From a virus (taxonomy: Duplodnaviria > Heunggongvirae > Uroviricota > Caudoviricetes), in the IMG/VR virus record IMGVR_UViG_2974636330_000001, positions 1 through 21,022 of that record: a stretch of DNA of 21,022 nucleotides; one strand, 5' to 3'. The translations under genes were made by a program, and so were the position numbers. Under the pieces are notes generated by a model that saw nothing but the letters and a program-made list of their open reading frames with translations, did not search any database and was not told the DNA's origin. Numbering within the stretch: the first letter of the stretch is position 1; each line of letters starts with the position of its first letter. This document shows, piece after piece, positions 1,893 to 20,016 of the stretch.

Positions 1893-3232
1893 TGAAACTC
1901 GAATCTTACGTCGCCGTCGAAGAAAGCCTGTCGAACAAGCTCCAGAAGACGTGGCGGTCTGAAGCGGTCAAGTTGTACGCGAAGATGCTCCGGAAGGTGG
2001 AGCAGGAAGACTTCGACGGCGCTCGTAAGTTGGTGGAGCAGATCGACCTCACGGATGTGGGGACGAAGAACAAGGCCGCGATTCGGAGTCATCTCCGGGC
2101 GGCCATGATCTACGGGGCACGGAACGCCTCTGGCCTGAACTCGTCCATCACAGAAGCGGGCCAGTACAAGGAACTGATGGACCGGGTGGAGGCCGTGATG
2201 TTGGCCTCTCTGGAGTGGAACGCCACCGCTTACACGGTGAAGGCCGCGCTGCAATCAATTGCACGGGCAGAGAAGGCTCACGCGGAGGCGGAGCAGGTAG
2301 TAAAGAAGGCGGCAACCAAGAAGCGGTTCGTGCAGGAGTTCGTGTCGTTCCAGAAGGACGGCGACGACATGATCCAGTTGGTGTCGAGTCTGCACACCAA
2401 CCGACTGGCTACGTACGGGTTCACCGCAGAGGCAGAAGTCCTCGGCATCGAGACCTACAAGCTGGTGGCGGTGCTGGACGGTCGCACGTCTGAGTTCTGC
2501 CGGATGATCAACGGGCACACGTTCCAAGTGTCGGATGCCCGGGACACGATCCTTCAGGTGTTGAATCTGGAGAACCCTGACGACGCCAAGTTCATCCAGC
2601 CGTGGCCGAACCAGAGCAAGGCCAACATGGCTGAGTTCTCGAAGATGACCACGGCAGAGCTGACGGCTCTGAACTTGCATATCCCGCCGTTCCACCCGGG
2701 ATGCCGTACGGTGTGCGTGCCAGTGAGCAAGGCCCTGATCGCAGGCCCGTCCCGCATTCTGGCCAACCCGGACACCGTACCGGTGAAGGTCAACGACACG
2801 GTGTATGCCGTATCGACCCTGACCCAGCAGCGTGCCATGAACCAACTGGACAAGTTGGCCAATGGGAAGACCGTGCTGAACACCGATGTGGCGTTCTCGA
2901 AGGTGACGGACACGCAAGGTGCCGTGACCGCGATGACGAATGTGCCAGCCTCGGCTATCAAGGAGAAGGAAGTCGCGTTCGGCAACCTTGTCCCGACCCA
3001 AGACGAAGTGAGTGTCGATGGGGTGGCGGACTACATCGCCAAGATCGGCAAGAGCCAAGAAGAGCTGCCGCTCGTGGTGGTTCTGGACGGAAAGTATTAC
3101 GTGCAGGATGGGCACCACCGTCTGGTGGCCATGTACCTCCAGAAGAAGCGTAAGGTGGCTGTCCGTCTGGCCGTACTGGAGTCAGTCGATACTGATGACG
3201 CCCTGAATCTGGTCTTCAACTGGGTCGAATAG
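1892..3232 (+). CDS. MuF / SPP1 gp7-like minor head protein with C-terminal ParB/Srx-like domain, 446 aa
   Basis: Directly follows portal (TGATG overlap). MuF hallmarks AVLDGRTSEFCRMINGHTF and PPFHPGCRT. C-terminal LVPTQ...PLVVVLDGKYYVQDGHHRL matches the ParB/sulfiredoxin N-terminal domain motif. Confidence 0.85.
   Translation: MKLESYVAVEESLSNKLQKTWRSEAVKLYAKMLRKVEQEDFDGARKLVEQIDLTDVGTKNKAAIRSHLRAAMIYGARNASGLNSSITEAGQYKELMDRVEAVMLASLEWNATAYTVKAALQSIARAEKAHAEAEQVVKKAATKKRFVQEFVSFQKDGDDMIQLVSSLHTNRLATYGFTAEAEVLGIETYKLVAVLDGRTSEFCRMINGHTFQVSDARDTILQVLNLENPDDAKFIQPWPNQSKANMAEFSKMTTAELTALNLHIPPFHPGCRTVCVPVSKALIAGPSRILANPDTVPVKVNDTVYAVSTLTQQRAMNQLDKLANGKTVLNTDVAFSKVTDTQGAVTAMTNVPASAIKEKEVAFGNLVPTQDEVSVDGVADYIAKIGKSQEELPLVVVLDGKYYVQDGHHRLVAMYLQKKRKVAVRLAVLESVDTDDALNLVFNWVE
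2250..2263. repeat. TGCAATCAATTGCA pseudo-palindrome, copy 1 (inside MuF gene, encodes LQSIA)
   Basis: Exact copy read from the sequence. Confidence 0.95.
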
Positions 3233-3261
3233 TTGTTCGGCACAGGCCGGTACGGTATAGT
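3233..3261 (+). promoter_or_regulatory. Sigma70-like promoter for the protease gene
   Basis: TTGTTC (3233-3238), 17 bp, TATAGT (3256-3261), in the MuF-protease intergenic gap. Confidence 0.65.
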
Positions 3262-3263
3262 CT

Positions 3264-3277
3264 TGCAATCAATTGCA
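3264..3277. repeat. TGCAATCAATTGCA copy 2 (intergenic, over the predicted start site and next to the RBS)
   Basis: Exact copy starting 3 nt after the -10 box; AGGA RBS at 3277-3280. Confidence 0.95.
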
Positions 3278-3287
3278 GGACAACGGC

Positions 3288-3890
3288 ATGAGTGACCTGA
3301 TCATCAAGAAGGCGGACAAGACCTACAAGCAGATGGTCTGGGCCGAGGTCTATGCGCCGAACCGCCCTGACGTGGACGGCGAGTTCATGACCGCCGACGA
3401 TATCGAGAAGATGGCCTACGCCTTCCTGCGCTCAGGCCGTCTGGACCAGATCGACGTGAACCACGACAACGAAGTTGTGTCGGCCCATGTCATTGAGTCT
3501 TTCATCGCCCGGAAGGGAGACCCTGATTTCATTGAAGGGGCGTGGGTGGTGGGTATCCACATCAGCGACCCGGACACGTGGCAGATGGTTCTGGACGGTG
3601 AACTGAACGGCTTCTCGATGGAGGCGATGGTCACCAAGGAAGAGAAGGAGATGCTGGTGGACATTCCCCCGGTGGTGAAGGGGATGACCAGCACTGAAGA
3701 AGACCACCGGCATGAGTTTTTCGTGTCGTTTGACGAGAACGGGGAGTTCCTCGGCGGCACGACGGACGTGGTGCAAGGCCACAGCCACAAGATCATCGCT
3801 GGCACGGTGACGGAAGTGACCAACGATCATCGCCACCGCTTCAGTTCGGTGGACAATATCGAGATTATTGGAGAAGTTGTCGATGAGTGA
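3288..3890 (+). CDS. XkdF-like prohead (maturation) protease with C-terminal HxH repeats, 200 aa
   Basis: VWAEVYAPNRPDVDGEFMTADDIEKMAYAF, IDVNHD, VIESFIAR, GAWVVG and GELNGFSMEA match the XkdF-like putative serine protease family. ATG 3288 is preferred over TTG 3273 because of the RBS at 3277-3280. Confidence 0.85.
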   Translation: MSDLIIKKADKTYKQMVWAEVYAPNRPDVDGEFMTADDIEKMAYAFLRSGRLDQIDVNHDNEVVSAHVIESFIARKGDPDFIEGAWVVGIHISDPDTWQMVLDGELNGFSMEAMVTKEEKEMLVDIPPVVKGMTSTEEDHRHEFFVSFDENGEFLGGTTDVVQGHSHKIIAGTVTEVTNDHRHRFSSVDNIEIIGEVVDE

Positions 3891-4053
3891 TGACGCGAAA
3901 GTTCAGAAGGCCAATCCCTACCGAGGGGCAGGAGGCAAGTTCTGTTCACAGCGTCAGGCAATCACGACGACCCTGACGATCCCGAAACAGCCAGCAAACC
4001 GCAAGAAACCGCAGAAGAAGCAAGCTGGACCCGCAGGTGGCATGAAGTTCTGA
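3883..4053 (+). CDS. Small basic hypothetical protein, 56 aa
   Basis: GGAG at 3870-3873, ATG 3883 overlapping the protease end. Fills the gap on the coding strand; sequence MSDDAKVQKANPYRGAGGKFCS... Confidence 0.55.
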   Translation: MSDDAKVQKANPYRGAGGKFCSQRQAITTTLTIPKQPANRKKPQKKQAGPAGGMKF

Positions 4054-4076
4054 TCGACAGTAAACCTGCCAAAAGT

Positions 4077-4104
4077 TTGTTAGGTGGAAGGTCTGCTGTA
4101 CACT
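4077..4104 (+). promoter_or_regulatory. Putative promoter for scaffold/capsid genes
   Basis: TTGTTA (4077-4082), 16 bp, TACACT (4099-4104). Shares TTGTTAGGTG with the promoter at 9000; AGGAG RBS at 4113-4117. Confidence 0.5.
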
Positions 4105-4124
4105 TGATTGGTAGGAGATAGACC

Positions 4125-5351
4125 GTGCAGACAAAGCTTTCCATGAAGCAGATGGGCGATGCAGACGTTCAGTTCGTCTCTCTCGTCGGTCGTGCAGCAA
4201 ACCGCATCCCGTTTCGAATCACTAAGAGCGACAAGGAGAACAAGATGGGCCTCGATCTGAGCGGCATTGCCCGCGCGCTGAAGGGCAACAAGGTGGCGAA
4301 GGCTGACAAGCCGGAGCTGGTGGCCGTGGTGGTCGAGAAGTCCGACCTCCTGCCGCAGATCACCGAAGCGGTGACTGCTGCTGGCCTGAACGTGGACAAC
4401 GTGGTTGAAGACGCGGAGTCCAACACCGTTGCCTTCGTGCAGAAGGAATCGGAGGAAGGCGAAGAGCTGACCACCATCAAGATGGACGACACCGTGTCCG
4501 TCGTGGTGAAGGGCTTCTCGGCTTACTGCGACAACCTGAAGGACTTCAACGAAATCGTGCAGGCGCAGGGCTTCTACGCTGGCATGAACGTGGCGACCGA
4601 AGCGCTGCGTGACTCGGTGTACAAGGGCCTGTATTCCTCGGACAACCCGCAGGAAGCCGTCGCCAAGGCCGAGACCGTCCTGAGCCAGTTCACCTCGTAC
4701 ATGAAGACGCTGGTAGGCAACCTGCCGGACAACGCCTTCTATGTGTCGAAGGGTGTGGCCGTGGTCGTGGAAAAGGCCGCCAAGGACAAGAAGGACAAGG
4801 AAGAGGCCGACGCCGCCGCTGCCGCCAAGGCGAAGGATGAGCAGAAGGCCAAGGACGATGCCAAGACCGCTTCCAAGAAGGAAGAGGGCAACGGCAATGG
4901 CGACGAAGAGGAAATCAATCTGGATGAAGTTCCGGACGACGTTTCCAAGAAGGACTGGACCGCCAAGTCGGAAGACGAACGCCGCCAGTACCACGCCGCC
5001 AAGAAGTCCGAAGTCGCTCCGGTCCAGAAGTCCGAAACCCCGGCTCCGACCGTGGATGTGGGCGATATCGTGCAGAAGACCGCCGCTGCCGTGCTGGCTG
5101 CGCTGGAGCCGAAGTTCGTGGCCATCGAGAAGGCGCAGAAGGCCACCGAAGAAATGGTTGATTCGGTAGTCCAGAAGTCGGAGACTGTTGCTCAACGGCT
5201 CGGCACCACGGTGGTGAACACCACCTCGGCAGCTGATACCCCGAGTGGCAACGTCCAGAAGTCGGACAAGAGCGACACCGATCCGCGACAGGGCTGCTTC
5301 GATACCGCCCTGATCCGCAAGGGTCAGCGTCGTAGCATCAACGGCAACTGA
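4125..5351 (+). CDS. Probable capsid scaffolding protein, 408 aa (possible second in-frame start at 4245)
   Basis: Lies between protease and major capsid. K/E/A-rich, helical and low-complexity, with a charged linker; GTG start with AGGAG RBS. The function call is positional. Confidence 0.65.
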   Translation: MQTKLSMKQMGDADVQFVSLVGRAANRIPFRITKSDKENKMGLDLSGIARALKGNKVAKADKPELVAVVVEKSDLLPQITEAVTAAGLNVDNVVEDAESNTVAFVQKESEEGEELTTIKMDDTVSVVVKGFSAYCDNLKDFNEIVQAQGFYAGMNVATEALRDSVYKGLYSSDNPQEAVAKAETVLSQFTSYMKTLVGNLPDNAFYVSKGVAVVVEKAAKDKKDKEEADAAAAAKAKDEQKAKDDAKTASKKEEGNGNGDEEEINLDEVPDDVSKKDWTAKSEDERRQYHAAKKSEVAPVQKSETPAPTVDVGDIVQKTAAAVLAALEPKFVAIEKAQKATEEMVDSVVQKSETVAQRLGTTVVNTTSAADTPSGNVQKSDKSDTDPRQGCFDTALIRKGQRRSINGN

Positions 5352-5386
5352 TCGGCCAATACACAAGTCCCCAAGGAGAACGAAAA

Positions 5387-6319
5387 GTGCGTAACCAAGA
5401 CCTCATCAAGAAGGCGGACCTCGCTCTGGCCGATCTGGCGAACGGCGGCCTGCTGCTCCCGGAGCAGAACGACCGCTTCATCCGCACCCTGATCGATCAG
5501 CCGACGATCCTGTCGCAGGTCCGTACCGTGGCCATGAACAGCCCGGAACGCAAGATCAACAAGATCGGCTTCGGCTCGCGCATCCTGCGCCCGGCAGTCA
5601 GCGCCACCCCGCTGACCCCGAGCCAGCGTGCGGCCCCCGATCTGGGCCAGATCACCCTGACCACCAAGGAAGTGATCGCGGAAGTCCGCATCCCGTACGA
5701 CGTGATGGAAGACAACATCGAGCGTGGCAACGTCGGTGTCGATCCGCAGTCGGGCGCGGGTGGTCTGCACCAGACCATCGTGGACCTGATGGCCGAGCGC
5801 GCTGCGCTGGACCTCGAAGAGCTGGCGATCAAGGGCGACACCGCGTCGGCGGATACCTATCTGGCCCTCCAGAATGGTTACCTGAAGCTGTCCTCGGCGA
5901 ACGTCGTTGCTGCCGGTGGCGGCTTCAACAAGGACACCGTGAAGGCCGGTATCCGCGCAATGCCGGACAAGTACCTGCGCAACCGTGCGGCGATGAAGCA
6001 CTTCATCAGCATCGACAACGAGACCGAGCTGCGTGACCAGTACGCCGCCCGCTCGACCGCACTGGGCGACGCGAACCTGACCGGCAACAACCCGCTGTTC
6101 ATGTTCGGCTCGCGCGTCGAAGGCGCTCCGATGATGCCGTCCGATTCGGGCCTGTTCACCCACCCGGACAACCTGATCTTCGGCATCCAGCGCAACGTGA
6201 TGATGGAGTACGACAAGGACATTACGTCCCGCGTCTTCATCATCGTGCTGACCGCTCGTGTGGCCTTCGCCATCGAAGAGCCGAACGCAGTCGTGAAGTA
6301 CACCGGCATCGTCGGTTAA
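5387..6319 (+). CDS. Major capsid protein (HK97 fold, XkdG-like), 310 aa
   Basis: GGLLLPEQNDRFIRTLIDQPTILSQVR N-arm, AERAALDLEELAIKGD, and C-terminal LFTHPDNLIFGIQRNV...RVAFAIEEPNAVVK. Strong codon bias, AAGGAG RBS, followed by a terminator. Confidence 0.93.
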   Translation: MRNQDLIKKADLALADLANGGLLLPEQNDRFIRTLIDQPTILSQVRTVAMNSPERKINKIGFGSRILRPAVSATPLTPSQRAAPDLGQITLTTKEVIAEVRIPYDVMEDNIERGNVGVDPQSGAGGLHQTIVDLMAERAALDLEELAIKGDTASADTYLALQNGYLKLSSANVVAAGGGFNKDTVKAGIRAMPDKYLRNRAAMKHFISIDNETELRDQYAARSTALGDANLTGNNPLFMFGSRVEGAPMMPSDSGLFTHPDNLIFGIQRNVMMEYDKDITSRVFIIVLTARVAFAIEEPNAVVKYTGIVG

Positions 6320-6342
6320 TCGGCGACACCGGCTAGGGGGAG

Positions 6343-6375
6343 AAGGGGCATTCGAAAGGGTGCCCCTTTTTCTTT
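6343..6375 (+). terminator. Rho-independent terminator after major capsid gene
   Basis: AAGGGGCATTC-GAAA-GGGTGCCCCTT stem (two G.U) followed by the T-tract TTTTTCTTT. Confidence 0.85.
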
Positions 6376-6388
6376 GCAATCAATTGCA
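6375..6388. repeat. TGCAATCAATTGCA copy 3 (intergenic, between terminator T-tract and RBS)
   Basis: Exact copy; AAGGAG follows at 6391-6396. Confidence 0.95.
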
Positions 6389-6402
6389 GCAAGGAGAAGA
6401 TG

Positions 6403-6669
6403 ATGCAACTGTTCAACCAGACGGCTGCCGCGAATGTGCAGTTCAGCGGTGGCACGCAGACCACGTTGGCTGCTGGTGGGCTGGGCGCGGCGGAGAAGGT
6501 GGAAATCCTGATCCATGATGGCCAGGCTTACGTCCCCCTGATCGACTTCGAGAGTGGCGAGCCGGTGACCCTGACGCAGGCCAAGCCCCACCGGGTGATC
6601 TACGGGGTCGGGCTGTATCGCGCCAAGAAGGAAGCGACTGCCGCAGCAGTATCCTGCGTCTATTACTGA
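6403..6669 (+). CDS. Hypothetical protein, 88 aa (89 aa if ATG 6400 is used); possible virion accessory protein
   Basis: AAGGAG RBS 6 nt before ATG 6403; phage-like codon usage; no recognised motif. Confidence 0.7.
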   Translation: MQLFNQTAAANVQFSGGTQTTLAAGGLGAAEKVEILIHDGQAYVPLIDFESGEPVTLTQAKPHRVIYGVGLYRAKKEATAAAVSCVYY

Positions 6670-6740
6670 GCAGGTTTGTGCCTTGCAATAGAACGCAAGG
6701 TGGTTGAAAATGAAGTCTCTAACCGTCAAGGAGTGCTGTC

Positions 6741-7493
6741 ATGGGTGTCAAGAAGAACGAGCAGGACGAAGCCGTGAAGGCTGCGGACCAGAAGCCCACC
6801 GAAACCAAGGTGACCGAGAAGCCGGAAGTGAAGCAGGACGATGGCAAGAGTGCCGTCACCCTGACCTCGACCGAAGCCAAGCCGGAGCAGACTGCCGAGC
6901 AGGAGCAGCAGCCGGTGAAGGACAAGGTGGCCGACGCGGACGCCAAGGAACTGAAGGAGCAGGCCGATACCGCCAAGGATGCGGAGCCGACCGGTGAGCC
7001 GAAGGTGACCAAGCCGGAAGACGTGGTTGCGTCCGATGCCGCTCCGTCCGTGGCAGCAATCGAAGCAGCGGTGGCCGGTACTGCCGCCAATGTAGATCCG
7101 TACCCGGAAGAACGTGACGACGTGGCCCAGCTGGAACTGCTGGCGTACAATCGGCTGGTGCTGGCCAACCGCCTGTTCGAGCGCGGCGTGGTCTACGACG
7201 TGACCGAAGAAGATGCCGACCAGCTGCTGCGGGTCCGCACCGACGACGGTCGTCCGGTGTTCGGTCGCTACGTGCTGGAAGAGAAGGCCACGAACGACGC
7301 CATCGTCCGCCGCGCCCCGCTGCCGCGCACCACCTCGGTGGCGATGCCGGTCCGCATGGTGTCGGATACCGCGACCAACTCGAAGGCCATCGAAATCGGC
7401 ACCGAGGAAGAGCTGATCGCGGCTGGACTGATCGCCAAGGATGCCGCTGATGTGGTGGCCGACCTCAGCAAGGGCGAGTCCGTCGAGCTGTAA
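6741..7493 (+). CDS. Hypothetical protein, 250 aa; acidic low-complexity N-half and compact C-terminal domain
   Basis: AAGGAG RBS upstream and strong codon bias; N-half rich in E/K/A/P/T. Confidence 0.8.
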   Translation: MGVKKNEQDEAVKAADQKPTETKVTEKPEVKQDDGKSAVTLTSTEAKPEQTAEQEQQPVKDKVADADAKELKEQADTAKDAEPTGEPKVTKPEDVVASDAAPSVAAIEAAVAGTAANVDPYPEERDDVAQLELLAYNRLVLANRLFERGVVYDVTEEDADQLLRVRTDDGRPVFGRYVLEEKATNDAIVRRAPLPRTTSVAMPVRMVSDTATNSKAIEIGTEEELIAAGLIAKDAADVVADLSKGESVEL

Positions 7494-7515
7494 CTGAAGA
7501 AAAGGAAGGTGCGCT

Positions 7516-8127
7516 GTGGTGAGGATTGTTACTGAAGCTGATGTACGGGCACGCATGGCGCTGTCGAATGACCTGCTGGGCGTGACGGCCACGATTGAGT
7601 CGGCCCTTACCGCAGCGCACCTCCGAATTGAAACCGAGTACGGTAGCCGACTGGCTTACGGGGTGGGCGATGACACGTTCTACCTCGACTCGGTGATCCA
7701 CAACGGGGTACGCCCGGGCGGCATGTTCCGTCTGGAGCTGAAGCACGGCTTCGTACGTGATGCTCCGGTGGTAGTGGAGACGGCGTTCTCCCAGAACAGC
7801 CTGTGGGCGAACCCCGCAGAGCCAATTGCGAACACCTCGGTGACGGTGGATGCCGAGCGTGGCATTGTCTACGTGCCGGAGAGCTACCAGAATCGCTACG
7901 TCCGAATCCAGTACGAGTACGGGTTCAAGGACGACGAAGGTGATCTGGCCCCGGACTGGCTGAAGGAAGCGATCCTCGCCTACGTGCCGGTGGTGTTCAA
8001 CTTCTCGAACCCGGGCAACAACGATCCCAAGCAGGAAAAGATGAATCGTCAGAGCGGTGACCACGCACTGGCAATTCTGGCCCCGTACACCCGAAACATC
8101 GGGTTCTGCCTGCGCCCGGTGTACTGA
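7516..8127 (+). CDS. Probable head-tail adaptor / head completion protein, 203 aa
   Basis: Position after capsid. N-terminal IVTEADVRARMAL...IESALTAAHLRIETE and C-terminal YEYGF...APDWLKEAILAY...ALAILAPY resemble gp6/gp15-type adaptors. Confidence 0.7.
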   Translation: MVRIVTEADVRARMALSNDLLGVTATIESALTAAHLRIETEYGSRLAYGVGDDTFYLDSVIHNGVRPGGMFRLELKHGFVRDAPVVVETAFSQNSLWANPAEPIANTSVTVDAERGIVYVPESYQNRYVRIQYEYGFKDDEGDLAPDWLKEAILAYVPVVFNFSNPGNNDPKQEKMNRQSGDHALAILAPYTRNIGFCLRPVY

Positions 8128-8549: not shown

Positions 8550-8995
8550 GTCAGAACGTAAACGAGATTCTGGATGACGTGAAAGTGAAGTTGCAATCAA
8601 TTGCAACGTTCAACAATCAGGTTGTACACATATTGACCGAAGAGGACTTCTTCAAGAAGATTCAGGGCGCGAAGCCCCCTGCGGTCGGAGTCCTGTACGA
8701 AGGTATCCGTGCCAAGCCGGAAGCGAACAAGGACTCCCACAAGGTCGGCCTGTCCAATGAGCTGGGCATGGCACTGGTGCTGGCGATGCAGTCCACGTCC
8801 CCGGTGGGTGGCGATCTGCGCGGCACGGCTATCGAGTACCTCGACAAGATGCGGGACGTACTGAAGGACACGCGATCCCTGTCGGGACACTTCTGGAGGT
8901 TCGAACTGGAAGCCCCGGTGGCAGAGAAGGGTGGTTACTCCCTGTGGATTCAGCGGTGGTCCACGACGGTACAGATGACGAAGAAGACACCGTAA
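8546..8995 (+). CDS. Probable tail terminator / tail completion protein, 149 aa
   Basis: ATGA overlap with the previous gene (the track's 8285 start overlaps that gene). Size, position before the tube gene, and PAVGVLYEG / WIQRWST beta-strand pattern. Confidence 0.6.
   Translation: MSQNVNEILDDVKVKLQSIATFNNQVVHILTEEDFFKKIQGAKPPAVGVLYEGIRAKPEANKDSHKVGLSNELGMALVLAMQSTSPVGGDLRGTAIEYLDKMRDVLKDTRSLSGHFWRFELEAPVAEKGGYSLWIQRWSTTVQMTKKTP
8592..8605. repeat. TGCAATCAATTGCA copy 4 (in CDS, encodes LQSIA; arms extend to GTTGCAAT-CA-ATTGCAAC, 8590-8607)
   Basis: Exact copy. Confidence 0.95.
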
Positions 8996-8999
8996 GTTG

Positions 9000-9028: not shown

Positions 9029-9067
9029 AGGTTGACTGCAACATCACACCACTGAAAGGAGAGCAAC

Positions 9068-11202: not shown

Positions 11203-14200
11203 ATGGCGACCAACACCCCAGAAGTAAGTATCCGCGTAATGGTTGAAAACGGCCAAGTCAAGGTCGGTGTCAATCAGGTAAAGACGGAAATCAAGTCCCT
11301 CGGTCCGGCTGTGCAGCAGGCAAGTGCGCAGGCAGCCGGGAACTTGGAGCCGATCAACGCGAAGCTCAGTCAGATTCAGGACAACCTGCAAATGGTTGGC
11401 CAGTTTGCTGGTGCGTATCTGGGGTTCTCCGCCATCAAGAACGGTCTGTCTGGGCTGGTGCAGGCGCAGATGGCCTTGCAGCAGATTCAGAACGGCCTTC
11501 AGGCAGCATCGGGGTCGGCAGCGGGAGGCGCGCAGGAGTTCGCCTTCCTGTCTGACATGGCCGAGCGCGTCGGTGTCCGGTTGGTGGACGCCGGTAATGC
11601 GTACGCTGCGTACTACTCGGCCGCGAAGGCGGCCAACCTGACCACGGCAGAGACCCGAGACCTGTTCCAGTCCACGGCTGAGGCAGGCGCGGTGTTCAAC
11701 CTGTCCGCACAGCAGGTAGACGCGGCGCTGCTGGCGCTCCAGCAGATGATGGCGCAGGGCACGATCCGTACGCAGGAGCTGAACTACCAGTTGGGTACGG
11801 CCCTGCCCGGTTCGTTCGCCAAGTTCAAGCAGCTGGTGGAGAGCCGGAAGCTGGTTCCGGACTTCAACAAGGCGCTGTCGGAAGGCGCGTTCGACGTGAA
11901 GACCTTCGCCCCGGTGCTGTCGGAGGCGATCCAGAGCCTGTATTCGCAGGAAGATTTGAACCGAGCGGCAGACGATTTGACCTCGCAGTTCGCCAAGATG
12001 GAGAACGCATGGGTCAAGTTCAAGGCGTCGTTCGTTGAAGGCGAGTTCCAGAACACTCTGTCGAATGTCATCGGTGGGCTGGCTGGCCTGACCAATGCGC
12101 TGGCGTCCGCCAACAAGGGGATCGGCGGCGAAGCAGTGATGATCGGCACGGCAGTGGCCGCGTTCTCCCTGTTCGCCAAGGGCACGAATGTCGTCACCGA
12201 CAACCTCGTGAAGATGGGTCAGTCGTTCGTGGACGCCACCGGCATCACGAAGGCAGCGGCTGCGGCTCAGGTGATCTCCACTGAGGCGGCACTGACCGAA
12301 GCCAAGGCCCAGCAGCAGTCGGCGGCTTCAGCGGCTTCAGCGGCTGCGGTGAAGGTTGCCCAGACGGAGGCGAATGCTGCCCTGACGGCATCGGCGCTGG
12401 CGAATGCGGAAGCGACTCTGGCCAGTACCCGTGCGAACGTGGCTGCCGGTGAATCCACGGCTGCCCTGACGGCGGCTGAGAATCTGGCTGCGGCGGCAGC
12501 GGCCCGACATGCTGAGGCCCTTCAGGCTGCGACGGTGGCCAAGGCCAACGCGACCATTGCGAACCGCACGCTGGCCACGTCGAACACGACTGTCGCTACT
12601 GCCACCTCCGCTGCGGGTCTGGCAGCAGCCCGTACGGCGGGCCAGATGAGCGTGATGACCATCGCGGCGGGGGCCTTGCGCACCGGTCTGGGTGGAGTGT
12701 TGTCGCTGCTGGGAGGTTGGCCGGGTGTTGTGCTGGCTGCCGGTGCGGCGCTGATCTACTTCGCCACCCGTGCGAGCGAAGCGAAGAAGGCGACGGACGA
12801 GTTCATTACCAGTCTGGATACGTCCTTCCAGAAGATGACGGAGTTCGCAGGCCGCCGTAAGGAACTGTCGAACCTCGAAGTCCTGCTGCGTAAGCAGGAA
12901 CAGGAAGGCAACACGGCAGAGGCCGAGAAGACTCGCGCCACCATCCGCCGCCTGAGCGGTGACCTTGCTGATCAGCGTCGTGATCTGGAGACCCAACAGG
13001 TCCGTGATCGTGCGGCTGCGACCGACCGCGAGCGCAAGCTGAAGGAAGCACAGGACGCCCTGAACAAGCAGGCATCTGTCAACGCTGGCCCGGGGGGTCT
13101 GGGTAGCGGCAGTGAGGCAAACGACGCCCGGCTGTTGAACGCCTACCAGCGTGCGCAGGAGCGAGTGACTGAAGCCCAGCGTGCCCTTGATGCGGCCAAT
13201 CAGGCTGTCAACCTGAGCCAGAAGAACCTCGACGCTTCCCGTGAAGCGGCGGCGCGTGGTGATGCTGCCCGCGCTCTGGATCAGGCCAAGGCTCAGGTGA
13301 AGTCGGCCACTGAAGCCTCGGACGAAGCGAAGCGCAAGGCTGATCAGGCCATTGAAGAGCTGCGCAACCCGGAGGCGAAGGTCACCAACGCCATCAAGAA
13401 CGCAGAAACGGAGTTCAAAAAGAAGAACCCGAATCTGGATGTTTCGACTGGTGAAGGCGCGGAACTGCTGAAGCAGTACACGGACGCGGCTGCCCAGCAG
13501 GTTCGTGTGGAACAGGCTCAGGCGGCTGCCAAGAAGGAAGTGGCCGGGGCCGAGCGGGAGAAGAACAGCGAAGCGAAGGAAGCCGAGCGTCTGGCCCGTA
13601 TGCAGCAGAAGGCGGAGAACCAGACCGCCGATGCGATCCGCAACCTCGACCAGATCACCACCGACGCCACGAATGGTCTCCGCGAGCAGAACCAAGCCCG
13701 CGACCAGATGGAGGCATCGCTGCGGCAGATCGAGGACCAGATTTACCAGACGACCCGCCAGATCAACGAGTCGAAGCTGTCGGATGCGGAGAAGGCTACT
13801 TCCCTGCAATCAATTGCAGAGAAGGCTGACCTCGCCCGGGCCGCCGTCCAGAAGCTGGGCGCTGCGGAGGAACAGCGTGCCCGTGATGAACTGCGGAAGG
13901 CTGCCCGCGAAGACAACAACGCCGATTCCTTCCAGTTGGCTCAGGACGCCTTGCTGAGGAAGGGTGACGACAAGTCGCTGGATCAGGCCAACCGGAATGA
14001 AATTGACAACTACTACCAGAACAAGCTGACTGGCCTTCAGGAGAACTTCAAGGGCCGACTGGAGACCTCGGAGTACACGACTTCGTTCCAAGAACTTCAG
14101 GCGAACTGGGAAACGGCGCTGGCCAACATGTCCACGGTGGCCCAGCAGCGCGGTGATGAAATCCAGCAGAACCTGTCGGGGGCATGGTCGAACGCCCTGA

Positions 14201-14958
14201 TGGGGATGCTGTCTGGCACCATGACTTGGCAGCAGGGCTTGCAGTCGATCTTCACCTCGATCTACCAGTCGTTCCTTCAGACGATGGTGGTGCAGCCGTT
14301 GGCTGATATGGCGGCACGTTGGCTGCGGGAGACGATCCTGCAACAGACGTTCCTGACCATGCAGACCACGCAGCAGGCGACTGCCAGTGCCCAGAACATG
14401 GCCATCAAGCAGACGGAATCGACTGCGGCAGTGTCGGCCAACGCGGCAACGGCGGCGTCTGGTGCGGCGGCTTCGCAGGCATCGATCCCGTATGCAGGCC
14501 CGGCGTTGGCTATCGCAGCCATGATCGCCATCTTCGCTGCGGTGATGGCCATCCAGAAGAAGAAAGACGGTGGTTCGATTAGAGGCCCGGGAACGGGTAC
14601 GTCTGACTCGGTGCCGATTCTGGCATCGAATGGCGAGTACATGATCAAGGCTTCCTCGGTGCAAAAGTACGGAGTCGGCTTCTTGGACTCGGTGAACGAG
14701 GGGTCTCTGGATGTTGGTAAGTCTCCGATGGGCCGCGTTCATACGCCCAAGTACACGTATGCAGATGGTGGTCTGGTTACGCCTATGCCCGGATCGAACA
14801 GCCCGAAGGAAGGCGACCGTGCGGCTGCGGGTGTACGGGTGGTCAACGTGCTTGACCCCCGACTGTTCGAGGACTACATCAACAGTGCAGAGGGTGAGAA
14901 GTCCATCCTGAATGTCATTGAAAAGAATCCGCGTCGCGTCAAACAATCCATTGGGTGA
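11203..14958 (+). CDS. Tail tape measure protein, 1251 aa
   Basis: N-terminal tape-measure domain (ALQQMMAQGTIRTQELNYQLGTALPG), long Ala-rich and coiled-coil regions, and C-terminal GGSIRGPGTGTSDSVPILASNGEYMIKASSV motif. Confidence 0.96.
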   Translation: MATNTPEVSIRVMVENGQVKVGVNQVKTEIKSLGPAVQQASAQAAGNLEPINAKLSQIQDNLQMVGQFAGAYLGFSAIKNGLSGLVQAQMALQQIQNGLQAASGSAAGGAQEFAFLSDMAERVGVRLVDAGNAYAAYYSAAKAANLTTAETRDLFQSTAEAGAVFNLSAQQVDAALLALQQMMAQGTIRTQELNYQLGTALPGSFAKFKQLVESRKLVPDFNKALSEGAFDVKTFAPVLSEAIQSLYSQEDLNRAADDLTSQFAKMENAWVKFKASFVEGEFQNTLSNVIGGLAGLTNALASANKGIGGEAVMIGTAVAAFSLFAKGTNVVTDNLVKMGQSFVDATGITKAAAAAQVISTEAALTEAKAQQQSAASAASAAAVKVAQTEANAALTASALANAEATLASTRANVAAGESTAALTAAENLAAAAAARHAEALQAATVAKANATIANRTLATSNTTVATATSAAGLAAARTAGQMSVMTIAAGALRTGLGGVLSLLGGWPGVVLAAGAALIYFATRASEAKKATDEFITSLDTSFQKMTEFAGRRKELSNLEVLLRKQEQEGNTAEAEKTRATIRRLSGDLADQRRDLETQQVRDRAAATDRERKLKEAQDALNKQASVNAGPGGLGSGSEANDARLLNAYQRAQERVTEAQRALDAANQAVNLSQKNLDASREAAARGDAARALDQAKAQVKSATEASDEAKRKADQAIEELRNPEAKVTNAIKNAETEFKKKNPNLDVSTGEGAELLKQYTDAAAQQVRVEQAQAAAKKEVAGAEREKNSEAKEAERLARMQQKAENQTADAIRNLDQITTDATNGLREQNQARDQMEASLRQIEDQIYQTTRQINESKLSDAEKATSLQSIAEKADLARAAVQKLGAAEEQRARDELRKAAREDNNADSFQLAQDALLRKGDDKSLDQANRNEIDNYYQNKLTGLQENFKGRLETSEYTTSFQELQANWETALANMSTVAQQRGDEIQQNLSGAWSNALMGMLSGTMTWQQGLQSIFTSIYQSFLQTMVVQPLADMAARWLRETILQQTFLTMQTTQQATASAQNMAIKQTESTAAVSANAATAASGAAASQASIPYAGPALAIAAMIAIFAAVMAIQKKKDGGSIRGPGTGTSDSVPILASNGEYMIKASSVQKYGVGFLDSVNEGSLDVGKSPMGRVHTPKYTYADGGLVTPMPGSNSPKEGDRAAAGVRVVNVLDPRLFEDYINSAEGEKSILNVIEKNPRRVKQSIG
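13805..13818. repeat. TGCAATCAATTGCA copy 5 (in tape measure gene, encodes LQSIA)
   Basis: Exact copy. Confidence 0.95.
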
Positions 14959-14964
14959 AGAAGA

Positions 14965-16548
14965 ATGAGCGTTATCAAGGGAACGGCCAACGGGCACTAC
15001 GATTTCCTGAACCAGTTGCAGGCGATCCTGTGTGATGCTGGCCATGCGTGGAACAAGTCGTACACCGGAACCGGTAATGGCCGTATCACCGGCATGAATG
15101 AAGAGTCTGGTGGATACGTTGGTGGGCCTGACTCCATCGCGGAGACCTTCACGATTACTGCCACCAGCCCCACCCAGTTTTCGGTGGAAGGTTCGGTGTC
15201 GGGTGTGATTGGGACCACGGCGGTGAATGTGGCGTTCAACCACGCGAAGCTGAAGTTCCGCATTGTGCCGGGAACCACGGCCTTCGTTGCCGGTGACAAG
15301 TTCATCCTGAACACCACCCCGAAGTGGCAGTTGGTGCGGCGCATCGGCACCCGGGGATCGGCTTACCGTCCTTCGGACATGGTGAACTCGCAGAACCTGT
15401 GGTCTACGGATCAGGAGTATGCGAGCAAGCCCGCCGCCCAGCTTCCGGCCCATGCTGGCATCCAGTTGATCAAAGAAGAGGTGGTGGGGCAGTTCGTGAT
15501 CCGGGCCTACAACGGCAGCGGAAACTTCACTCCGAAGTCGTTCGACCTTCAGTATTCGGATGATGGTGTGAACTACACGACGGCCCAGAGCTGGGCGGAC
15601 GTGGTGATCGCCTCGAACGAAGCCAAGGCTTTCGACGTGACGGAGGCGGTGACCCCGCACTTGTACTGGCGGCTGCGGTTCAAGACCACGGCGGTGGACA
15701 ATGTTGAAGTGCGCGTGGCGGCTCTGGAGTTCCGGCGCAGCGCAGGTGACACCTTCACCATCTCCGGAGGGGCGGAAGTCCTGTTCAAGGCCCCGGGTCT
15801 GGGTGGGTTGGAGTCGATCTTGGTGGGCTGCGAGCTGTACGAAAGTGTGTCCAGTGCGGTGTACAACCTGAACTGGTATGCGCCCCGCAACTTCGATGAC
15901 AAGAAGCGGCTGCGGAACATGCTGCCGTCTTCGGGTTTTGTCGGCACTCCGATGACGAACCAGTCGTTCAACTTCTGGGTGTTCGTGAATGGCCAGCGGG
16001 TGATCATCGTGTGCCGTATCGGTTCGGTGTACATCGGAGGCTACTTCGGCTTCGGCAACCCGTATGAAATCCAGACCAACCATCAGTACCCGATGATTCT
16101 GGGCGGCTGTACGGACGAAGAGGCGACGCGGTTCGATACGACCAATGCGGAGAATCGCATCTACTGCAACCCGGGACGGTGGACGCTGAGGGCGTTCTAC
16201 CCGGCATCGGGGTGGGTGCGACATGCGAACCTGCGGGAAGTCGGCAACAACGTCGCAGCTGGTTCGGGTGTGGAGGACGGAAAGGTATTCCCGGCAGCGA
16301 TGGTGGGCAGCGGGGATGTGCGCTACCTGTACCGTGACAACGTAGACGGAAGCCTGCCGATGTTCCCCAGTGTGATCGGTGGAGCCAACCCCCGGCACAT
16401 GTGGGGCGAGTTCGACGGGGTGTACTGGACCACTGGATTCAACAACCTCCCGGAGGCGATAATTACCCGTGAGGGCTTCGACCACATGGTGTTCCAAGAC
16501 ATGTTCCGCACCACCTACCAAGACTACTACGCAGTGAGGATGGACTGA
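14965..16548 (+). CDS. Tail-tip virion structural protein with inserted discoidin (F5/8 type C)-like module, 527 aa
   Basis: First gene after tape measure; MSVIKGTANGHYDFLNQL N-terminus resembles YuA/chi-like virion proteins. Internal TPKSFDLQYSDDGVNYTT...HLYWRLRF...VAALEF fits a discoidin/CBM32 pattern. Confidence 0.7.
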   Translation: MSVIKGTANGHYDFLNQLQAILCDAGHAWNKSYTGTGNGRITGMNEESGGYVGGPDSIAETFTITATSPTQFSVEGSVSGVIGTTAVNVAFNHAKLKFRIVPGTTAFVAGDKFILNTTPKWQLVRRIGTRGSAYRPSDMVNSQNLWSTDQEYASKPAAQLPAHAGIQLIKEEVVGQFVIRAYNGSGNFTPKSFDLQYSDDGVNYTTAQSWADVVIASNEAKAFDVTEAVTPHLYWRLRFKTTAVDNVEVRVAALEFRRSAGDTFTISGGAEVLFKAPGLGGLESILVGCELYESVSSAVYNLNWYAPRNFDDKKRLRNMLPSSGFVGTPMTNQSFNFWVFVNGQRVIIVCRIGSVYIGGYFGFGNPYEIQTNHQYPMILGGCTDEEATRFDTTNAENRIYCNPGRWTLRAFYPASGWVRHANLREVGNNVAAGSGVEDGKVFPAAMVGSGDVRYLYRDNVDGSLPMFPSVIGGANPRHMWGEFDGVYWTTGFNNLPEAIITREGFDHMVFQDMFRTTYQDYYAVRMD

Positions 16549-17525
16549 TGTACCTCAAAGGCTCTGCAATTGATTGCACGGACCTGTTGGCCCAGCTGCG
16601 CACTTTCTTGGAGGGTGCGGGCTGGACCACGGACTACTACGCCCCACGTAGTCAGTTGCCGGACAGCGGCGTGCAGTATTCGTTCCACAAGGGCGACCTC
16701 AACGTCACGATGCTGTCGAATGTCACGGAGGTGGAGAACCCCATCACCTCTTCTGACAAGCGCGGGCGGGTGTATGTGCAGATACACGACCCGTTCGTTG
16801 CCTCACAGACTCCGGAAGTCCAGCCGAACAGCACCGGCAACCAGATGACCAACGGCCTGACCGACCCCATCAAGAACTTCTGGTTCTTCGAAGGAGAAGA
16901 GGGTGGGTCGCAGTATGCGTACGTGGTGTGCGAAATTACGACGGGCGTGTTCAAGCATTTCCACGTCGGCAAGTTGAAGAAGCGTGGCCAGACCTACGAG
17001 AATGGCAACTTCGTCACGTGCAGCAACTGGTACTACAACTCGACCAACATCACGGATCAGCCTGATGTAGGTTGGCATTCGGTTCCTTTTGACGACGTGA
17101 ACAACAGCAGCAACAACTACAACGGTATGGTCGTTCGCTGTGATCTGGGTGGCGTCAGTCCCCGTTGGTGGCGGTCGAATTATTACTACTCCAACAGCGG
17201 CGTGAATCTGCTGCGGGTGGGCTACCGAGGTGGCAATGACTACGGCACGATCCACGCCCTGAAGGATTGGGGGCTGTCCACTGAGACCGGGCGTACGCCG
17301 CTGTCCCCGCTCCACACGGCAATCAATCGCGGTGAGGGGTACTACAGCTATATCGGAGAACCCCCGGGCGTCCGGTACATCGATATCACGAACTACGAAG
17401 GCGCTCAGGAGCTGGCAGTGGGTTCGGATACGTGGCTGGTGTTCCCGGTACACCGGAAGATTTTCACCTCTCAGTCGCCCTACACGGCGGCGTATGGGCT
17501 GGCATACAAGAAGGTTATCGACTGA
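16548..17525 (+). CDS. Tail-tip virion structural protein, 325 aa
   Basis: TGATG coupling; MYLKGSA...DLLAQLRTFLEGAGW N-terminus and C-terminal DTWLVFP...YGLAYKK, like the paired post-TMP proteins of YuA/chi-like phages. Confidence 0.7.
   Translation: MYLKGSAIDCTDLLAQLRTFLEGAGWTTDYYAPRSQLPDSGVQYSFHKGDLNVTMLSNVTEVENPITSSDKRGRVYVQIHDPFVASQTPEVQPNSTGNQMTNGLTDPIKNFWFFEGEEGGSQYAYVVCEITTGVFKHFHVGKLKKRGQTYENGNFVTCSNWYYNSTNITDQPDVGWHSVPFDDVNNSSNNYNGMVVRCDLGGVSPRWWRSNYYYSNSGVNLLRVGYRGGNDYGTIHALKDWGLSTETGRTPLSPLHTAINRGEGYYSYIGEPPGVRYIDITNYEGAQELAVGSDTWLVFPVHRKIFTSQSPYTAAYGLAYKKVID
16565..16578. repeat. Pseudo-palindrome copy 6, opposite orientation (TGCAATTGATTGCA), encodes SAIDC
   Basis: Exact reverse complement of the consensus. 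Confidence 0.95.
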
Positions 17526-19201
17526 TGGCTCTGTGCCTGATCGACAATGCGACTCTGATCGGGGTGACCAGTTTCCCCCGATTCGTGCAGGACGGAAATT
17601 ATCGCTGGGGTCCAGACATGGACTCGGGCCGGTCTGCGCCGAAGTACGCCATCCCCTACGATCAGGTGGTGAACCGTAAGCGAGGAATCTATGCCGGATC
17701 GTACGCGGACGATTTCTATGATCAGCTGCACATCAGTGTGCAGTCGTTGGATGTGGGGACGGTGGTTTCCACGGTGACGAAGGGCTTCTCGATCTGGAAC
17801 TCGTCTACTGGGCGGAGCCGGAAGCTGGTGGCCGTGACTTCGGATAACGATGCGGGCCTGCAACTGTCCGGTGAGCTGAACTTCCCGGTGATGTTCCATC
17901 CGTTGCAGAGCCGAGACTATGTGATCACCGCGTCCCCGACCGGGCCGTCGAACATCAATGCGATGTTCTATTTCCGGTTCGATGACAACACGGTTCTGGC
18001 CCTGAATGTTGTTGGTCGTCGTGCAGTGGCATGGACTGCCCGGCCCAACTGGGCGGAGTCGGTGACCGTACGCATGGAGTGGCTGACCGACGTACTCCAG
18101 TCGCGGTTCTCGTTCGAACAGCGCCGGAAGTTGCGGTATGGACCGCGAAAGAACTATGAGTTCTCGGTTCTGATGGACAACATTGAGCGCCGTCGAGTGG
18201 AGTCCAACGTGAGTGGTTGGGGTGTGCGTCCGTACGTGGCCCCGATGTGGGAGTTCGGCCAGCCTATCCAAGCGGTGCCCTCTGGTTCGACCTTCATTCC
18301 CTGCCAGACGGAAGGTCGTCCGATGTACCCGGGATCGATGGTGATGCTCCTGCGGGACAGCAAGACGTTCGAGATTCTGGAGATCGCCACGCTCGTAGAC
18401 AACGGGATTGTCTGCACGTCTCAGGTGACGAACAACTGGCCGAATGGGGCCAAGTTGTACCCGGCCACGACCATGATCATGGAAGAGGGTATGCGGGCGG
18501 CTCGGGTAGGTCAGCAGGGTATGTACGCGACCATCCGGATGCGGAGTACGGTTTCGACCGACCTGTACAACGTCCCGACTTGGGCACCGAAGATGTACTT
18601 GGGCCGTCCGGTGATGGAAGTCCCACCTGAAGAATCGGAAGAGCCGACCATGCTGTTCGAGCGCGTGTACGACATGCTGCCGAGCGAGACGGGCATCGAC
18701 TTGATCGAGGACGTGGCAAACCTGACGATCATGACCCAGAGCCATCGGTGGGCACTCGGAACCCAGAAGGAGTTCATGGAGTTCTACAGCCTGATGTACT
18801 ACCTGTCGGGCAAGTTGAAGACGATTTGGCTCCCGTCGTTCCGCTCCGACTTCACGGTGGTGGCGGATATTGTCTCGAACCAGTCGTATATCGACGTGGA
18901 CATGACGGGCTATGTCGAGATGACCAACGAGGCGGAAGGTCGGAAGAACATCCGTATCCAGTTCCGCGATGGGACGGTCCTGTATCGAGCCATCGACAGT
19001 GCGGTGGTGTTGGATGACGAGACCGAACGGCTGTTCTTCTTGGACTCGATCCCGAAAGCGTATACTGTCAATGATGTGCAGATGGTCAGTTTCATGATGC
19101 TGGCCCGGCAGAACTCGGACGCTATCGAAATGACGTGGAGCCACGAAAGCCTGATGGAAGCAGAAACCACGTTCAAGATGGTGCGGGAGGCGTCGGCATG
19201 A
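17525..19201 (+). CDS. Tail assembly / tail-tip protein, 558 aa
   Basis: ATG overlaps the previous TGA. PNWAESV...EWLTDVLQS...EQRRKLRYGPR and YYLSGKLKTIWLPS segments are typical of this tail module. Confidence 0.75.
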   Translation: MALCLIDNATLIGVTSFPRFVQDGNYRWGPDMDSGRSAPKYAIPYDQVVNRKRGIYAGSYADDFYDQLHISVQSLDVGTVVSTVTKGFSIWNSSTGRSRKLVAVTSDNDAGLQLSGELNFPVMFHPLQSRDYVITASPTGPSNINAMFYFRFDDNTVLALNVVGRRAVAWTARPNWAESVTVRMEWLTDVLQSRFSFEQRRKLRYGPRKNYEFSVLMDNIERRRVESNVSGWGVRPYVAPMWEFGQPIQAVPSGSTFIPCQTEGRPMYPGSMVMLLRDSKTFEILEIATLVDNGIVCTSQVTNNWPNGAKLYPATTMIMEEGMRAARVGQQGMYATIRMRSTVSTDLYNVPTWAPKMYLGRPVMEVPPEESEEPTMLFERVYDMLPSETGIDLIEDVANLTIMTQSHRWALGTQKEFMEFYSLMYYLSGKLKTIWLPSFRSDFTVVADIVSNQSYIDVDMTGYVEMTNEAEGRKNIRIQFRDGTVLYRAIDSAVVLDDETERLFFLDSIPKAYTVNDVQMVSFMMLARQNSDAIEMTWSHESLMEAETTFKMVREASA

Positions 19202-20016
19202 GTTTCCACGACCGCGAAGTATCCACCAGCGATGGCGCACCGGTAGAGCTGTACGACTTCTACCGGGGAACCCTGCATTGGCGATACACGAATGCCGACC
19301 GCGATATCGTATATGACGGACTGTTGTTCCGGGCCATTCCGATCAGCCGTGGGGAGATTGAACAGTCCTCGGAAGTGAAGAAGTTGGGCCTGACCGTCAA
19401 GGCCCCGATGACCATCGAAGTGTACGAGCAGTTCCGGGTGGCTCCGCCCGGTTCTGCAATTGGTTGCATCGTCTACACGTATCAGGCTGGCGGGGCAGTG
19501 GGCGACGTGATCCCGGAGTGGACTGGCCGGGTGATCACCTGTGTCCGAAAGGGCATCCAAGTCGAGCTGGTGTGCGAGCCGATGTACATCAGCCTGATGG
19601 CGATGGGCATTCGTCGGCGCTGGCAGAAGTCCTGCCCCCACCTGTTGTACGGTCCCGGGTGCAAGGCCAACAAGACCCAGTACGTGATCCCCGCAGTGGT
19701 GCAAGACGTGCAGGGCCTGTGGGTGACCGTGCCTGCTGCCATTGCCAAACCGGACTACTATTTCGAAGGTGGGTACATCGAATGGACCGACTTCTTTGGC
19801 CTGCCTGATTACCGGGGCATCGAAGAACACGTAGGCGACAAGATTCGTCTGAGTTATGGCTTCGACGGCATCGTCAGCGGAACGGCAGTGAGCATGTACC
19901 CCGGGTGTTCCCACACGATGCAGATGTGCAAGGACCGTTTCAACAACCTGTTGAACTACGGCGGAACTCCGTACATTCCCCAGAAGAACCCCTACAAAGG
20001 CAACCCGGTGTACTGA
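19198..20016 (+). CDS. Conserved tail-tip hub protein (DUF2163 / BR0599-like), 272 aa
   Basis: ATGA overlap; PVELYDF, WRYTNAD, CPHLLYGPGC and Cys-rich C-terminus YPGCSHTMQMCKDRFNNLLNYGGTPYIP. Confidence 0.85.
   Translation: MSFHDREVSTSDGAPVELYDFYRGTLHWRYTNADRDIVYDGLLFRAIPISRGEIEQSSEVKKLGLTVKAPMTIEVYEQFRVAPPGSAIGCIVYTYQAGGAVGDVIPEWTGRVITCVRKGIQVELVCEPMYISLMAMGIRRRWQKSCPHLLYGPGCKANKTQYVIPAVVQDVQGLWVTVPAAIAKPDYYFEGGYIEWTDFFGLPDYRGIEEHVGDKIRLSYGFDGIVSGTAVSMYPGCSHTMQMCKDRFNNLLNYGGTPYIPQKNPYKGNPVY
19455..19468. repeat. Pseudo-palindrome copy 7, opposite orientation, one mismatch (TGCAATTGGTTGCA), encodes SAIGC
   Basis: 13/14 match to the reverse-complement consensus. Confidence 0.8.

Follow-up and report, generated by a model that had tools for sequence, protein, structure and literature searches.

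An evenly spaced 14-bp dyad array across Stenotrophomonas phage DLP5 and its relatives: candidate docking sites for a conserved phage protein

Evenly spaced, genome-wide binding words, such as parS, NBS, matS, Chi and KOPS, are a hallmark of chromosome-scale processes. In phages, to our knowledge, few such arrays have been reported, and none with an assigned function. Here we analyse a 14-bp word, TGCAATCAATTGCA, that recurs in a 21,022-nt stretch of viral DNA (IMG/VR record IMGVR_UViG_2974636330_000001; hereafter the window), which is the first 21 kb (bases 1–21,022) of a virus genome of 96,542 bp that matches Stenotrophomonas phage DLP5. We find that the word is under selection, that its copies are spread evenly over the whole genome and that related arrays occur throughout a group of phages that share a conserved gene. 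On balance, the 14-mers are probably double-stranded (ds) DNA docking sites for a phage-encoded protein of two-fold symmetry, for which the best candidate is a 270-amino-acid hypothetical protein of PHROG 17202 (DLP5 47,752–48,564). Papers on DLP5, DLP3, Summit and related Rhodobacter phages make no mention of the repeat, and neither the 14-mer nor its variants were found in the phage literature searched, in agreement with the original prediction, made from the window sequence, that this is an undescribed site.

The DLP5 genome contains 26 exact copies of the word, compared with roughly zero expected, as well as nine copies with one mismatch and just one with two; this sharp drop from exact to two-mismatch copies indicates selection for the exact word. 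Six of the exact copies and one of the one-mismatch copies are in the window, where 13 strand-wise matches at up to two mismatches compare with 0.09 ± 0.32 expected from 100 dinucleotide shuffles. The original prediction named a codon-preserving null as the proper yardstick, and the enrichment withstands it: over 200 runs of a within-gene synonymous shuffle, an average of 8.1 exact copies survive in the genome as a whole and 2.0 in the window, numbers that equal the untouched intergenic copies, so that the 18 coding copies (four in the window) essentially vanish. The coding copies of DLP5 occupy all three codon phases and both orientations in unrelated proteins, where they read LQSIA, xAINC/xAIDC, CNQLQ or LQLIA, and the signal therefore lies in the nucleic acid rather than in a peptide. 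Most sites are intragenic and far from promoters. The gaps between sites have a coefficient of variation of 0.46, compared with 0.96 for random placement, and none of 20,000 simulations was as even; the largest gap is 5.96 kb. With a site about every 2–4 kb, no stretch is more than about 3 kb from one. Even gaps are general in the group, being significant (P ≤ 0.012) in 19 of the 25 genomes tabulated. The array was first thought to be limited to the structural region (2250–19468); instead, it spans the entire genome and recurs throughout the group of related phages.

Close relatives keep the array in place, a test that the original prediction had set. Summit and DLP3 (both genus Delepquintavirus; 90% and 81% identical to the window, respectively) carry 26 exact and 8 one-mismatch copies and 24 exact and 10 one-mismatch copies, respectively, at orthologous places. 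Between DLP5 and DLP3, the 14-bp sites are 97.7% identical, compared with 85% for the 60-nt flanks, and eight of the nine one-mismatch sites of DLP5 are retained in DLP3, where seven carry the identical mismatch and the eighth matches the word perfectly. At the orthologous site 39,626, the core is flipped from CA to TG and the site is kept, and the palindromic cores TA and CG are seen at single sites as tolerated variants, suggesting that the centre requires a pyrimidine–purine step rather than CA specifically.

Arrays were found in 28 phage genomes of 39–63% GC, which are Vibrio, Rhodobacter, Rhizobium, Agrobacterium, Pseudomonas and Aeromonas phages or metagenomic, and which belong to a group of related phages of 80–120 kb. 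The site belongs to a family recognised here, (T)GCA-NN-YR-NN-TGC(A), in which the outer GCA/TGC arms are nearly fixed group-wide and the inner bases are constant within a lineage and different between lineages. The exact 14-mer is multicopy in many IMG/VR contigs of 94–99 kb; five of these (39–62% GC) share 25–70% protein identity with DLP5 in about 15–45 genes and hold 9–50 exact copies despite almost no nucleotide similarity to it. Among isolate phages, taken from terminase relatives, the versions are TGCAATTAATTGCA in Vibrio V-YDF132 (25 copies), TGCAATTAA[C/G]TGCA in Vibrio PG28 and KarBoss, TGCAATCGATTGCA in Rhodobacter RcTiptonus (19 copies, or 48 at up to one mismatch), TGCAAACGTTTGCA in Agrobacterium JP1 (23 copies), TGCAAACGCTTGCA in Pseudomonas SM1 (P. 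aeruginosa; 21 copies) and TGCAACATATTGCA in Rhizobium TM16 (9 copies), and metagenomic relatives have TGCAGACATCTGCA (28 copies) and GGCAATCAATTGCC. The inner hexamers between the TGCA arms are ATCAAT, ATTAAT, ATCGAT, AACGTT, AACGCT, ACATAT and GACATC, at roughly 20–50 copies each. A palindromic core is the consensus in V-YDF132, RcTiptonus and JP1. One half-site is relaxed in R21Y, SIO-2 and G025, where about 25 sites persist at up to two mismatches, with even spacing in R21Y and G025. Preferences in the outer flanks are symmetric and lineage-specific as well (C..G, T..A or G..C).

The sites are dyads around a central pyrimidine–purine step. Across 257 sites from nine genomes, the complementarity of the flanks is not above that of swapped flanks (111 versus 120 at position 1 and 72 versus 91 at position 2); taken together with the use of both core orientations and with the perfect palindromes, this lack of covariation leads us to read the element as a double-stranded dyad. 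A two-fold symmetric protein on dispersed dsDNA sites, as the original prediction inferred, remains the best reading, but the array is not confined to the structural region and the likeness to a repressor is poor. That the element instead works as a hairpin of RNA or single-stranded DNA with a 5–6-bp stem is the least credible of the alternatives. Every gene is on the + strand (as annotated in Summit), so every copy is transcribed, and the flanks lengthen the stem at 3264 and 13805 (−11.8 and −12.0 kcal/mol; z −3.9 and −3.0). These two stems are strong only through chance-pairing flanks, however, and the other two folded sites are ordinary (z −1.8 and −1.5); the 5-bp A/U-rich stem is itself marginal, the two core orientations would form different loops, and the flank pairing is no greater than that of swapped flanks. 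The dyad is nevertheless used with a preferred direction: in genomes with a CA core, the core predominantly points along the gene strand, both in intergenic copies (68:22; P = 1e-6) and in coding ones (83:50; P = 0.005), a bias that base composition does not account for. Intergenic copies are over-represented in several relatives (30–55% of sites), where they often adjoin a ribosome-binding site or precede a TTGACA −35 box by a few bases; such proximity is possibly unavoidable because the intergenic spacers are short.

To look for a binder, we profiled every DLP5 protein for presence across 25 genomes, with presence or absence decided by jackhmmer on whole genomes, because a quicker search had missed ParB in RcZahn and KarBoss. 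The universal set consists of head, terminase and replication/recombination proteins and the PHROG 17202 protein (Summit gene 066), which is present in 24 of the 25 genomes analysed and in every complete one, the exception being a 66%-complete contig. Its central block reads F..FV....GF..RKA.YL..IY...IPW..V..LGWTKLKDLA; its putative recognition residues are nearly invariant, with R102, K103, Y106 and G128-W129-T130 unchanged across 12 aligned orthologs and retained by 20 of 24. Searches of Pfam and of PDB sequences returned nothing significant for this protein, nor were the Foldseek E-values significant; only structural re-alignment produced a match. The AlphaFold2 (AF2) model is confident at residues 40–165 (predicted local distance difference test (pLDDT) about 86–93), and VIA-align places residues 46–169 on Spo0J–parS (4umk; Z 9.9, 3.0 Å over 111 residues), ParB (6t1f; Z 9.3), Noc–NBS (6y93; Z 8.3) and KorB–operator (1r71; Z 6.6), with ParB-family DNA-binding domains making up most of the top 21 rows. 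The sole Foldseek hits with raised probability are likewise ParB and Noc DNA-binding domains. There is thus moderate evidence that the core (about residues 46–169) models as a ParB/Noc/KorB-type DNA-binding domain without a CTPase domain; the grade of moderate reflects the helical nature of the domain and a Z under 13.

The distribution and variation of this protein are consistent with a role at the sites. Among the 24 orthologs, the RKAxYL helix is retained wherever the inner bases are ATCAAT or ATTAAT, and the four that depart from it come from SM1, JP1 and RcTiptonus, which have CG cores, and from TM16 (ACATAT). The orthologs of G003 (RKATYL, ATCAAT) and SM1 (RKATQL, AACGCT) are otherwise very similar in the alignment. 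A tblastn search with the PHROG 17202 protein returned matches only in Vibrio, Rhizobium, Rhodobacter, Stenotrophomonas and Aeromonas phages. As a prospective test, we examined three phages to which this protein alone had led, namely L338C and RHph_I4 of Rhizobium and HJ05 of Aeromonas; all bear GCAAC-NN-GTTGC arrays, with 87 GCA-N6-TGC matches in L338C compared with 27 in the reversed control, 79 compared with 30 in RHph_I4 and 38 compared with 8 in HJ05. In two terminase relatives that lack PHROG 17202, Maribacter Colly_1 (5 versus 4) and Thermus phiLo (8 versus 7), there is no array.

Other DLP5 proteins fit the array less well. PHROG 17226 (DLP5 40,948–41,721) was rejected because it resembles a gp32-type single-strand-binding protein and is not specific. 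A very basic MerR/excisionase-type helix-turn-helix protein (DLP5 43,342–43,743), encoded between the SF2 helicase and RecA-like genes, is near-universal and is kept as a candidate of lower rank; it went undetected in RcTiptonus, which has a strong array, and in RcZahn, and its helix varies with phylogeny, not with the site. The MuF-like minor head protein of the window (1892–3232) has a C-terminal ParBc_2/Srx-like domain that we rejected as a universal binder, as it is confined to DLP5, Summit and DLP3; the MuF cores of other relatives bear different C-terminal extensions, up to about 1,500 amino acids in total, that resemble polyvalent virion proteins.

Of the analogies offered at the outset, that with parS and ParB comes through in part: a full-length ParB/Noc-like protein is not needed, whereas a different protein, universal in the group and bearing a ParB-type DNA-binding domain, makes a good candidate. 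Two 'ParB-domain' proteins have been ascribed to DLP5 (DLP5 literature, including PMC5834331). A replicon-borne ParB-family protein with both nucleotide-binding and helix-turn-helix domains (DLP5 69,945–70,799) could use the 14-mers as parS/OB/NBS-type loading sites and spread from them as a nucleotide-dependent clamp, an explanation that we regard as unlikely. ParB-family sites are 13–16-bp palindromes in several copies per replicon, and those of Noc and KorB are dispersed, a description that the 14-bp near-palindrome at 35 sites per 96.5 kb matches. The protein has a ParB_N domain (PF02195, E 1e-9), aligns with Noc, Spo0J and ParB over residues 20–167 including the helix-turn-helix (phmmer, E 1e-9), and retains the GxxR and N/R box residues; its AF2 model (pLDDT 79) matches Noc (7nfu), ParB and KorB (8qa9) over 190–230 columns, and its gene is directly upstream of TerL in most relatives. 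However, seven genomes yielded no ParB_N protein in iterative profile searches; among them are the complete G017, G020 and G029, which have 31, 27 and 28 evenly spaced sites, respectively, and in which the genes upstream of TerL lack a ParB domain. In addition, its presumed recognition helix varies freely among orthologs whose phages have the identical 14-mer, and its invariant residues cluster in the nucleotide-binding domain. Sites and full-length ParB do not consistently co-occur across relatives, then; the ParB-type DNA-binding domain alone, in PHROG 17202, does co-occur with them.

The remaining explanations dispense with a ParB-type domain altogether. The sites might be targets of an enzyme, serving as site-specific nicks as in T5 and tf, as points of Holliday-junction resolution, as recombination hot spots or as primer sites of the T4-like recombination and replication module, which we judge improbable. 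Even spacing suits a limited-range process, and the DLP5 genes include those for a T5-like polymerase, a ligase, a RecA-like protein, an exonuclease, a primase and resolvases like RuvC and RusA. The arms contain (A/T)TT-G, a fit to the RuvC cleavage consensus, and the orientation bias hints that an asymmetric core is read. Perfect palindromes in several lineages would nevertheless mean double-strand cuts or no choice of strand, roughly one site in three faces the less common way and the G029 version lacks the RuvC-like tetranucleotide. Localised nick sites of the T5, tf or phiKMV type have a strand-specific consensus with physical interruptions in virion DNA; the two orientations and the palindromic variants argue against strand specificity here. 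Operators or 'stoperators' of a repressor that silences a plasmid prophage, another of the early analogies, fit poorly, and we give them little credence. DLP5 persists as a phagemid, and both DLP5 and DLP3 form lysogens (published literature, including PMC5834331). One of the copies in the window falls on the start point of a promoter-like motif, and the intergenic sites are both over-represented and orientation-biased. Stoperators are asymmetric, transcription-oriented sites, however, and here we find only a bias, with several palindromic lineages that have no polarity at all; most DLP5 sites are within genes and away from promoters, and they are spaced uniformly, without regard to operon starts. 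Immunity specificities diverge quickly, whereas the identical 14-mer is kept by very distant phages (25–60% protein identity, 39–62% GC) and the array family extends to phages of other host genera. It is equally doubtful that a conserved proteobacterial host protein binds the sites and is exploited by the phages. In its favour, any phage binder is so far putative, and the Agrobacterium TGCAAACGTTTGCA and Pseudomonas TGCAAGCGCTTGCA versions resemble LacI-family operators. Yet the ATCAAT version occurs in phage genomes of 39–62% GC, which points to different hosts, and a scan of bacteria (one genome per species) found the 14-mer as a singleton in nearly all of the at least 120 stretches listed, indicating that the word is not a general host signal.

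Two bacterial stretches among the matches listed are exceptions. The first, in Comamonas testosteroni, is a scaffold end of prophage-like character that also has a DLP5-like head gene. The other is an island of about 17 kb in Paraburkholderia elongata 5N (NZ_WOEZ01000245.1, about 47.3–64.7 kb), duplicated on a second contig, with ten exact copies that are mostly intergenic. Its genes encode a transposase, an ADP-ribosylglycohydrolase, a DUF4145 protein, a 1441-amino-acid NOV_C protein, Sel1-repeat proteins and a resolvase fragment, and no clear helix-turn-helix gene was found in it; it could be a phage-sensing or satellite-like island. The resolvase fragment near an island copy prompted us to consider serine-recombinase crossover sites, a reading that we dismissed because 35 recombination sites would scramble the genome; no such recombinase is annotated in DLP5. 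A TerL search of genome contigs found no bacterial relatives.

Several observations weigh against PHROG 17202 as the reader of the sites. Its structural match is all-helical with Z below 13, and may reflect a common helical arrangement; the Foldseek E-values are all above 0.1. The presence of its gene is confounded with membership of the related phage group, and this applies to the prospective test too. G029 keeps an RKAMYL helix despite its inner GACATC, so there is no simple recognition code. The bias of the core towards the gene strand is not explained by a purely symmetric binder, and the Paraburkholderia island contains no detectable homolog of DLP5 proteins, of ParB or of PHROG 17202.

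Among known systems, the closest counterpart is the repeat of Cluster O mycobacteriophages (Corndog and relatives), TGTTCGG-N3-CCGAACA, a 17-bp dyad in more than 30 intergenic and genic copies with invariant arms, a variable centre and a predicted dimeric binder, in phages with ParB-like domain proteins (PMC4351075). DLP5 answers to the same description, with at least 30 copies of one short dyad, genic and intergenic and most of them off promoters. The two differ in sequence, lineage and hosts, those of the DLP5 group being Gram-negative, and the repeats of Cluster O crowd towards one end of the genome (PMC4351075), in contrast to the even DLP5 array. Unlike Cluster O, moreover, the DLP5-type family extends over many genera with lineage-specific inner bases and now has a proposed candidate binder; this proposal, the site family and the finding that the terminase-linked ParB is not a necessary binder are new here, as are the orientation bias, the hairpin test and the prospective test. 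KorB/OB of IncP plasmid RK2 (PMC11790492; PDB 1r71, 8qa8 and 8qa9), Noc/NBS and ParB/parS all involve short dispersed palindromes bound by ParB-type helix-turn-helix dimers, and KorB acts at a distance from its sites (PMC11790492). Both DLP5 candidate proteins model onto KorB/Noc/ParB structures. PHROG 17202 is without the CTPase N-terminal domain, and sliding-clamp behaviour is accordingly not expected from it alone; no ParA partner is annotated or was found in DLP5. In contrast to KorB/ParB systems, the DLP5 sites lie mostly inside genes. Their density (about one per 3 kb over 96 kb) and evenness also exceed those known for OB or parS. In the linear plasmid-prophage N15, palindromes for a partition protein are scattered among phage genes, but there are only four, served by a SopA/SopB pair; DLP5 has about 35 sites and no ParA-type gene annotated or found, and its array is kept in relatives without a ParB_N gene. 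The stoperators of Cluster A mycobacteriophages (L5, Bxb1), which are specific to a subcluster, are similar in being many 13–14-bp sites genome-wide, with some orientation bias in DLP5 too. They differ in having an asymmetric sequence and a strict orientation and in being bound by the repressor of immunity (PMC4351075), whereas the sites of the DLP5 group are dyads, in some lineages perfect palindromes, and are shared between genera.

Genes for the portal, a MuF-like head protein, the protease, the capsid, tail and tape-measure proteins and the baseplate lie in the window. A recount bore out the coordinates, strands and single mismatch of the seven copies as originally given, their spacings, the G that follows five of the seven and the division into two intergenic copies and five in open reading frames; only the base composition needed correction, the 14-mer being 9/14 A+T rather than 10/14. 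The exact copy at 2250..2263 (+) lies within the MuF-like gene in codon phase 1 (L-Q-S-I-A) and is kept in Summit and DLP3. So is the intergenic exact copy at 3264..3277 (+), which stands 2 nt past a promoter-like TTGTTC-17-TATAGT, at its start point, and whose final base is also the first of AGGA, the ribosome-binding site that serves the protease gene (ATG 3288). The other intergenic exact copy, 6375..6388 (+), also conserved, sits between the terminator hairpin with T-run of the capsid gene (about 6345–6374) and AAGGAG, the ribosome-binding site for the gene that follows (ATG 6400). The exact copy at 8592..8605 (+), in a small tail-region gene (homolog of Summit gene 011), is again in phase 1 as L-Q-S-I-A and has one mismatch in DLP3, and that at 13805..13818 (+) is 2.6 kb into the tape measure gene (11203–14958), in phase 1. 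The exact copy at 16565..16578 (−) has the reverse core orientation, with TG on the + strand, and lies 17 nt inside the tail gene 16548–17525. The one-mismatch copy TGCAACCAATTGCA at 19455..19468 (−) is in the baseplate gene ending at 20016, with the identical mismatch in Summit and DLP3.

Other features of these genomes deserve mention. A strong terminator-like hairpin, CCGGAGCCGAAAGGTTCCGG followed by TTTTTT, occupies window positions 1–30 at the start of the record, upstream of the portal gene. In public-run contigs of a Summit-like phage, a 1.15-kb contig bridges the genome end and start at about 4.8 times the depth of the rest (621 versus 130); it covers window 1–377 and the last ~840 bases of the genome, with a break near window 311–377, and may represent a terminal repeat or packaging-start region. 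One 14-mer copy (DLP5 96,520) is inside this contig of raised depth. Among the sequencing runs listed, none shared more than 0.23 of the words sampled and none was of RNA, and two runs of raw reads contained none from the phage. A second repeated word, CAATGGAGTG, occurs 15 times in the whole genome of DLP5, 16 times in Summit and 14 times in DLP3, and two IMG/VR relatives have repeats of their own, AAAATATATTTTCA in 3300033516_000084 (16 times) and hairpins of GGCCCGAAAGGGCC in the 39%-GC contig 3300045131_002463 (11 times). DLP5 DNA is heavily modified, with 4 of 36 restriction enzymes cutting it (DLP5 literature, including PMC5834331).

Selection keeps a site about every 2–4 kb over the entire genome; if PHROG 17202 is indeed the binder, a candidate dimer would read (T)GCA-NN-YR-NN-TGC(A) through its putative ParB-type domain, with the centre of the site presumably serving as a deformable pyrimidine–purine step. 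The full ParB/Noc-like protein, where present, may cooperate and would be dispensable for the array. Both the binding and its effect are inferred here. The even spacing suggests a function that needs reach over all of the DNA, and a site common to phages of several genera speaks against a role in immunity repression; the role that we prefer would be genome-wide marking or organisation of phage DNA in recombination-dependent replication, packaging or protection. We tentatively extend this to a broader idea, at present rather doubtful, that a family-level group of siphophages of 80–120 kb shares a 'genome-marking' system, in which a CTPase-less ParB-type domain reads a lineage-tuned palindrome placed every 2–4 kb within the genes of the phage itself and so gives phage DNA a self-identity or a scaffold for recombination-dependent replication, packaging or protection, and in which islands such as that of Paraburkholderia elongata might carry the word to sense or exploit the phage protein. 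Phages with the array are cultivable, among them DLP5, DLP3 and Summit (S. maltophilia), V-YDF132 and PG28 (Vibrio), RcTiptonus, SM1 (P. aeruginosa) and JP1 (Agrobacterium), and the 14-mer provides a sharp signature for recognising this phage group in metagenomes. Natural variants of both the site and the candidate protein make what a phage would gain from marking its DNA every 3 kb directly testable.

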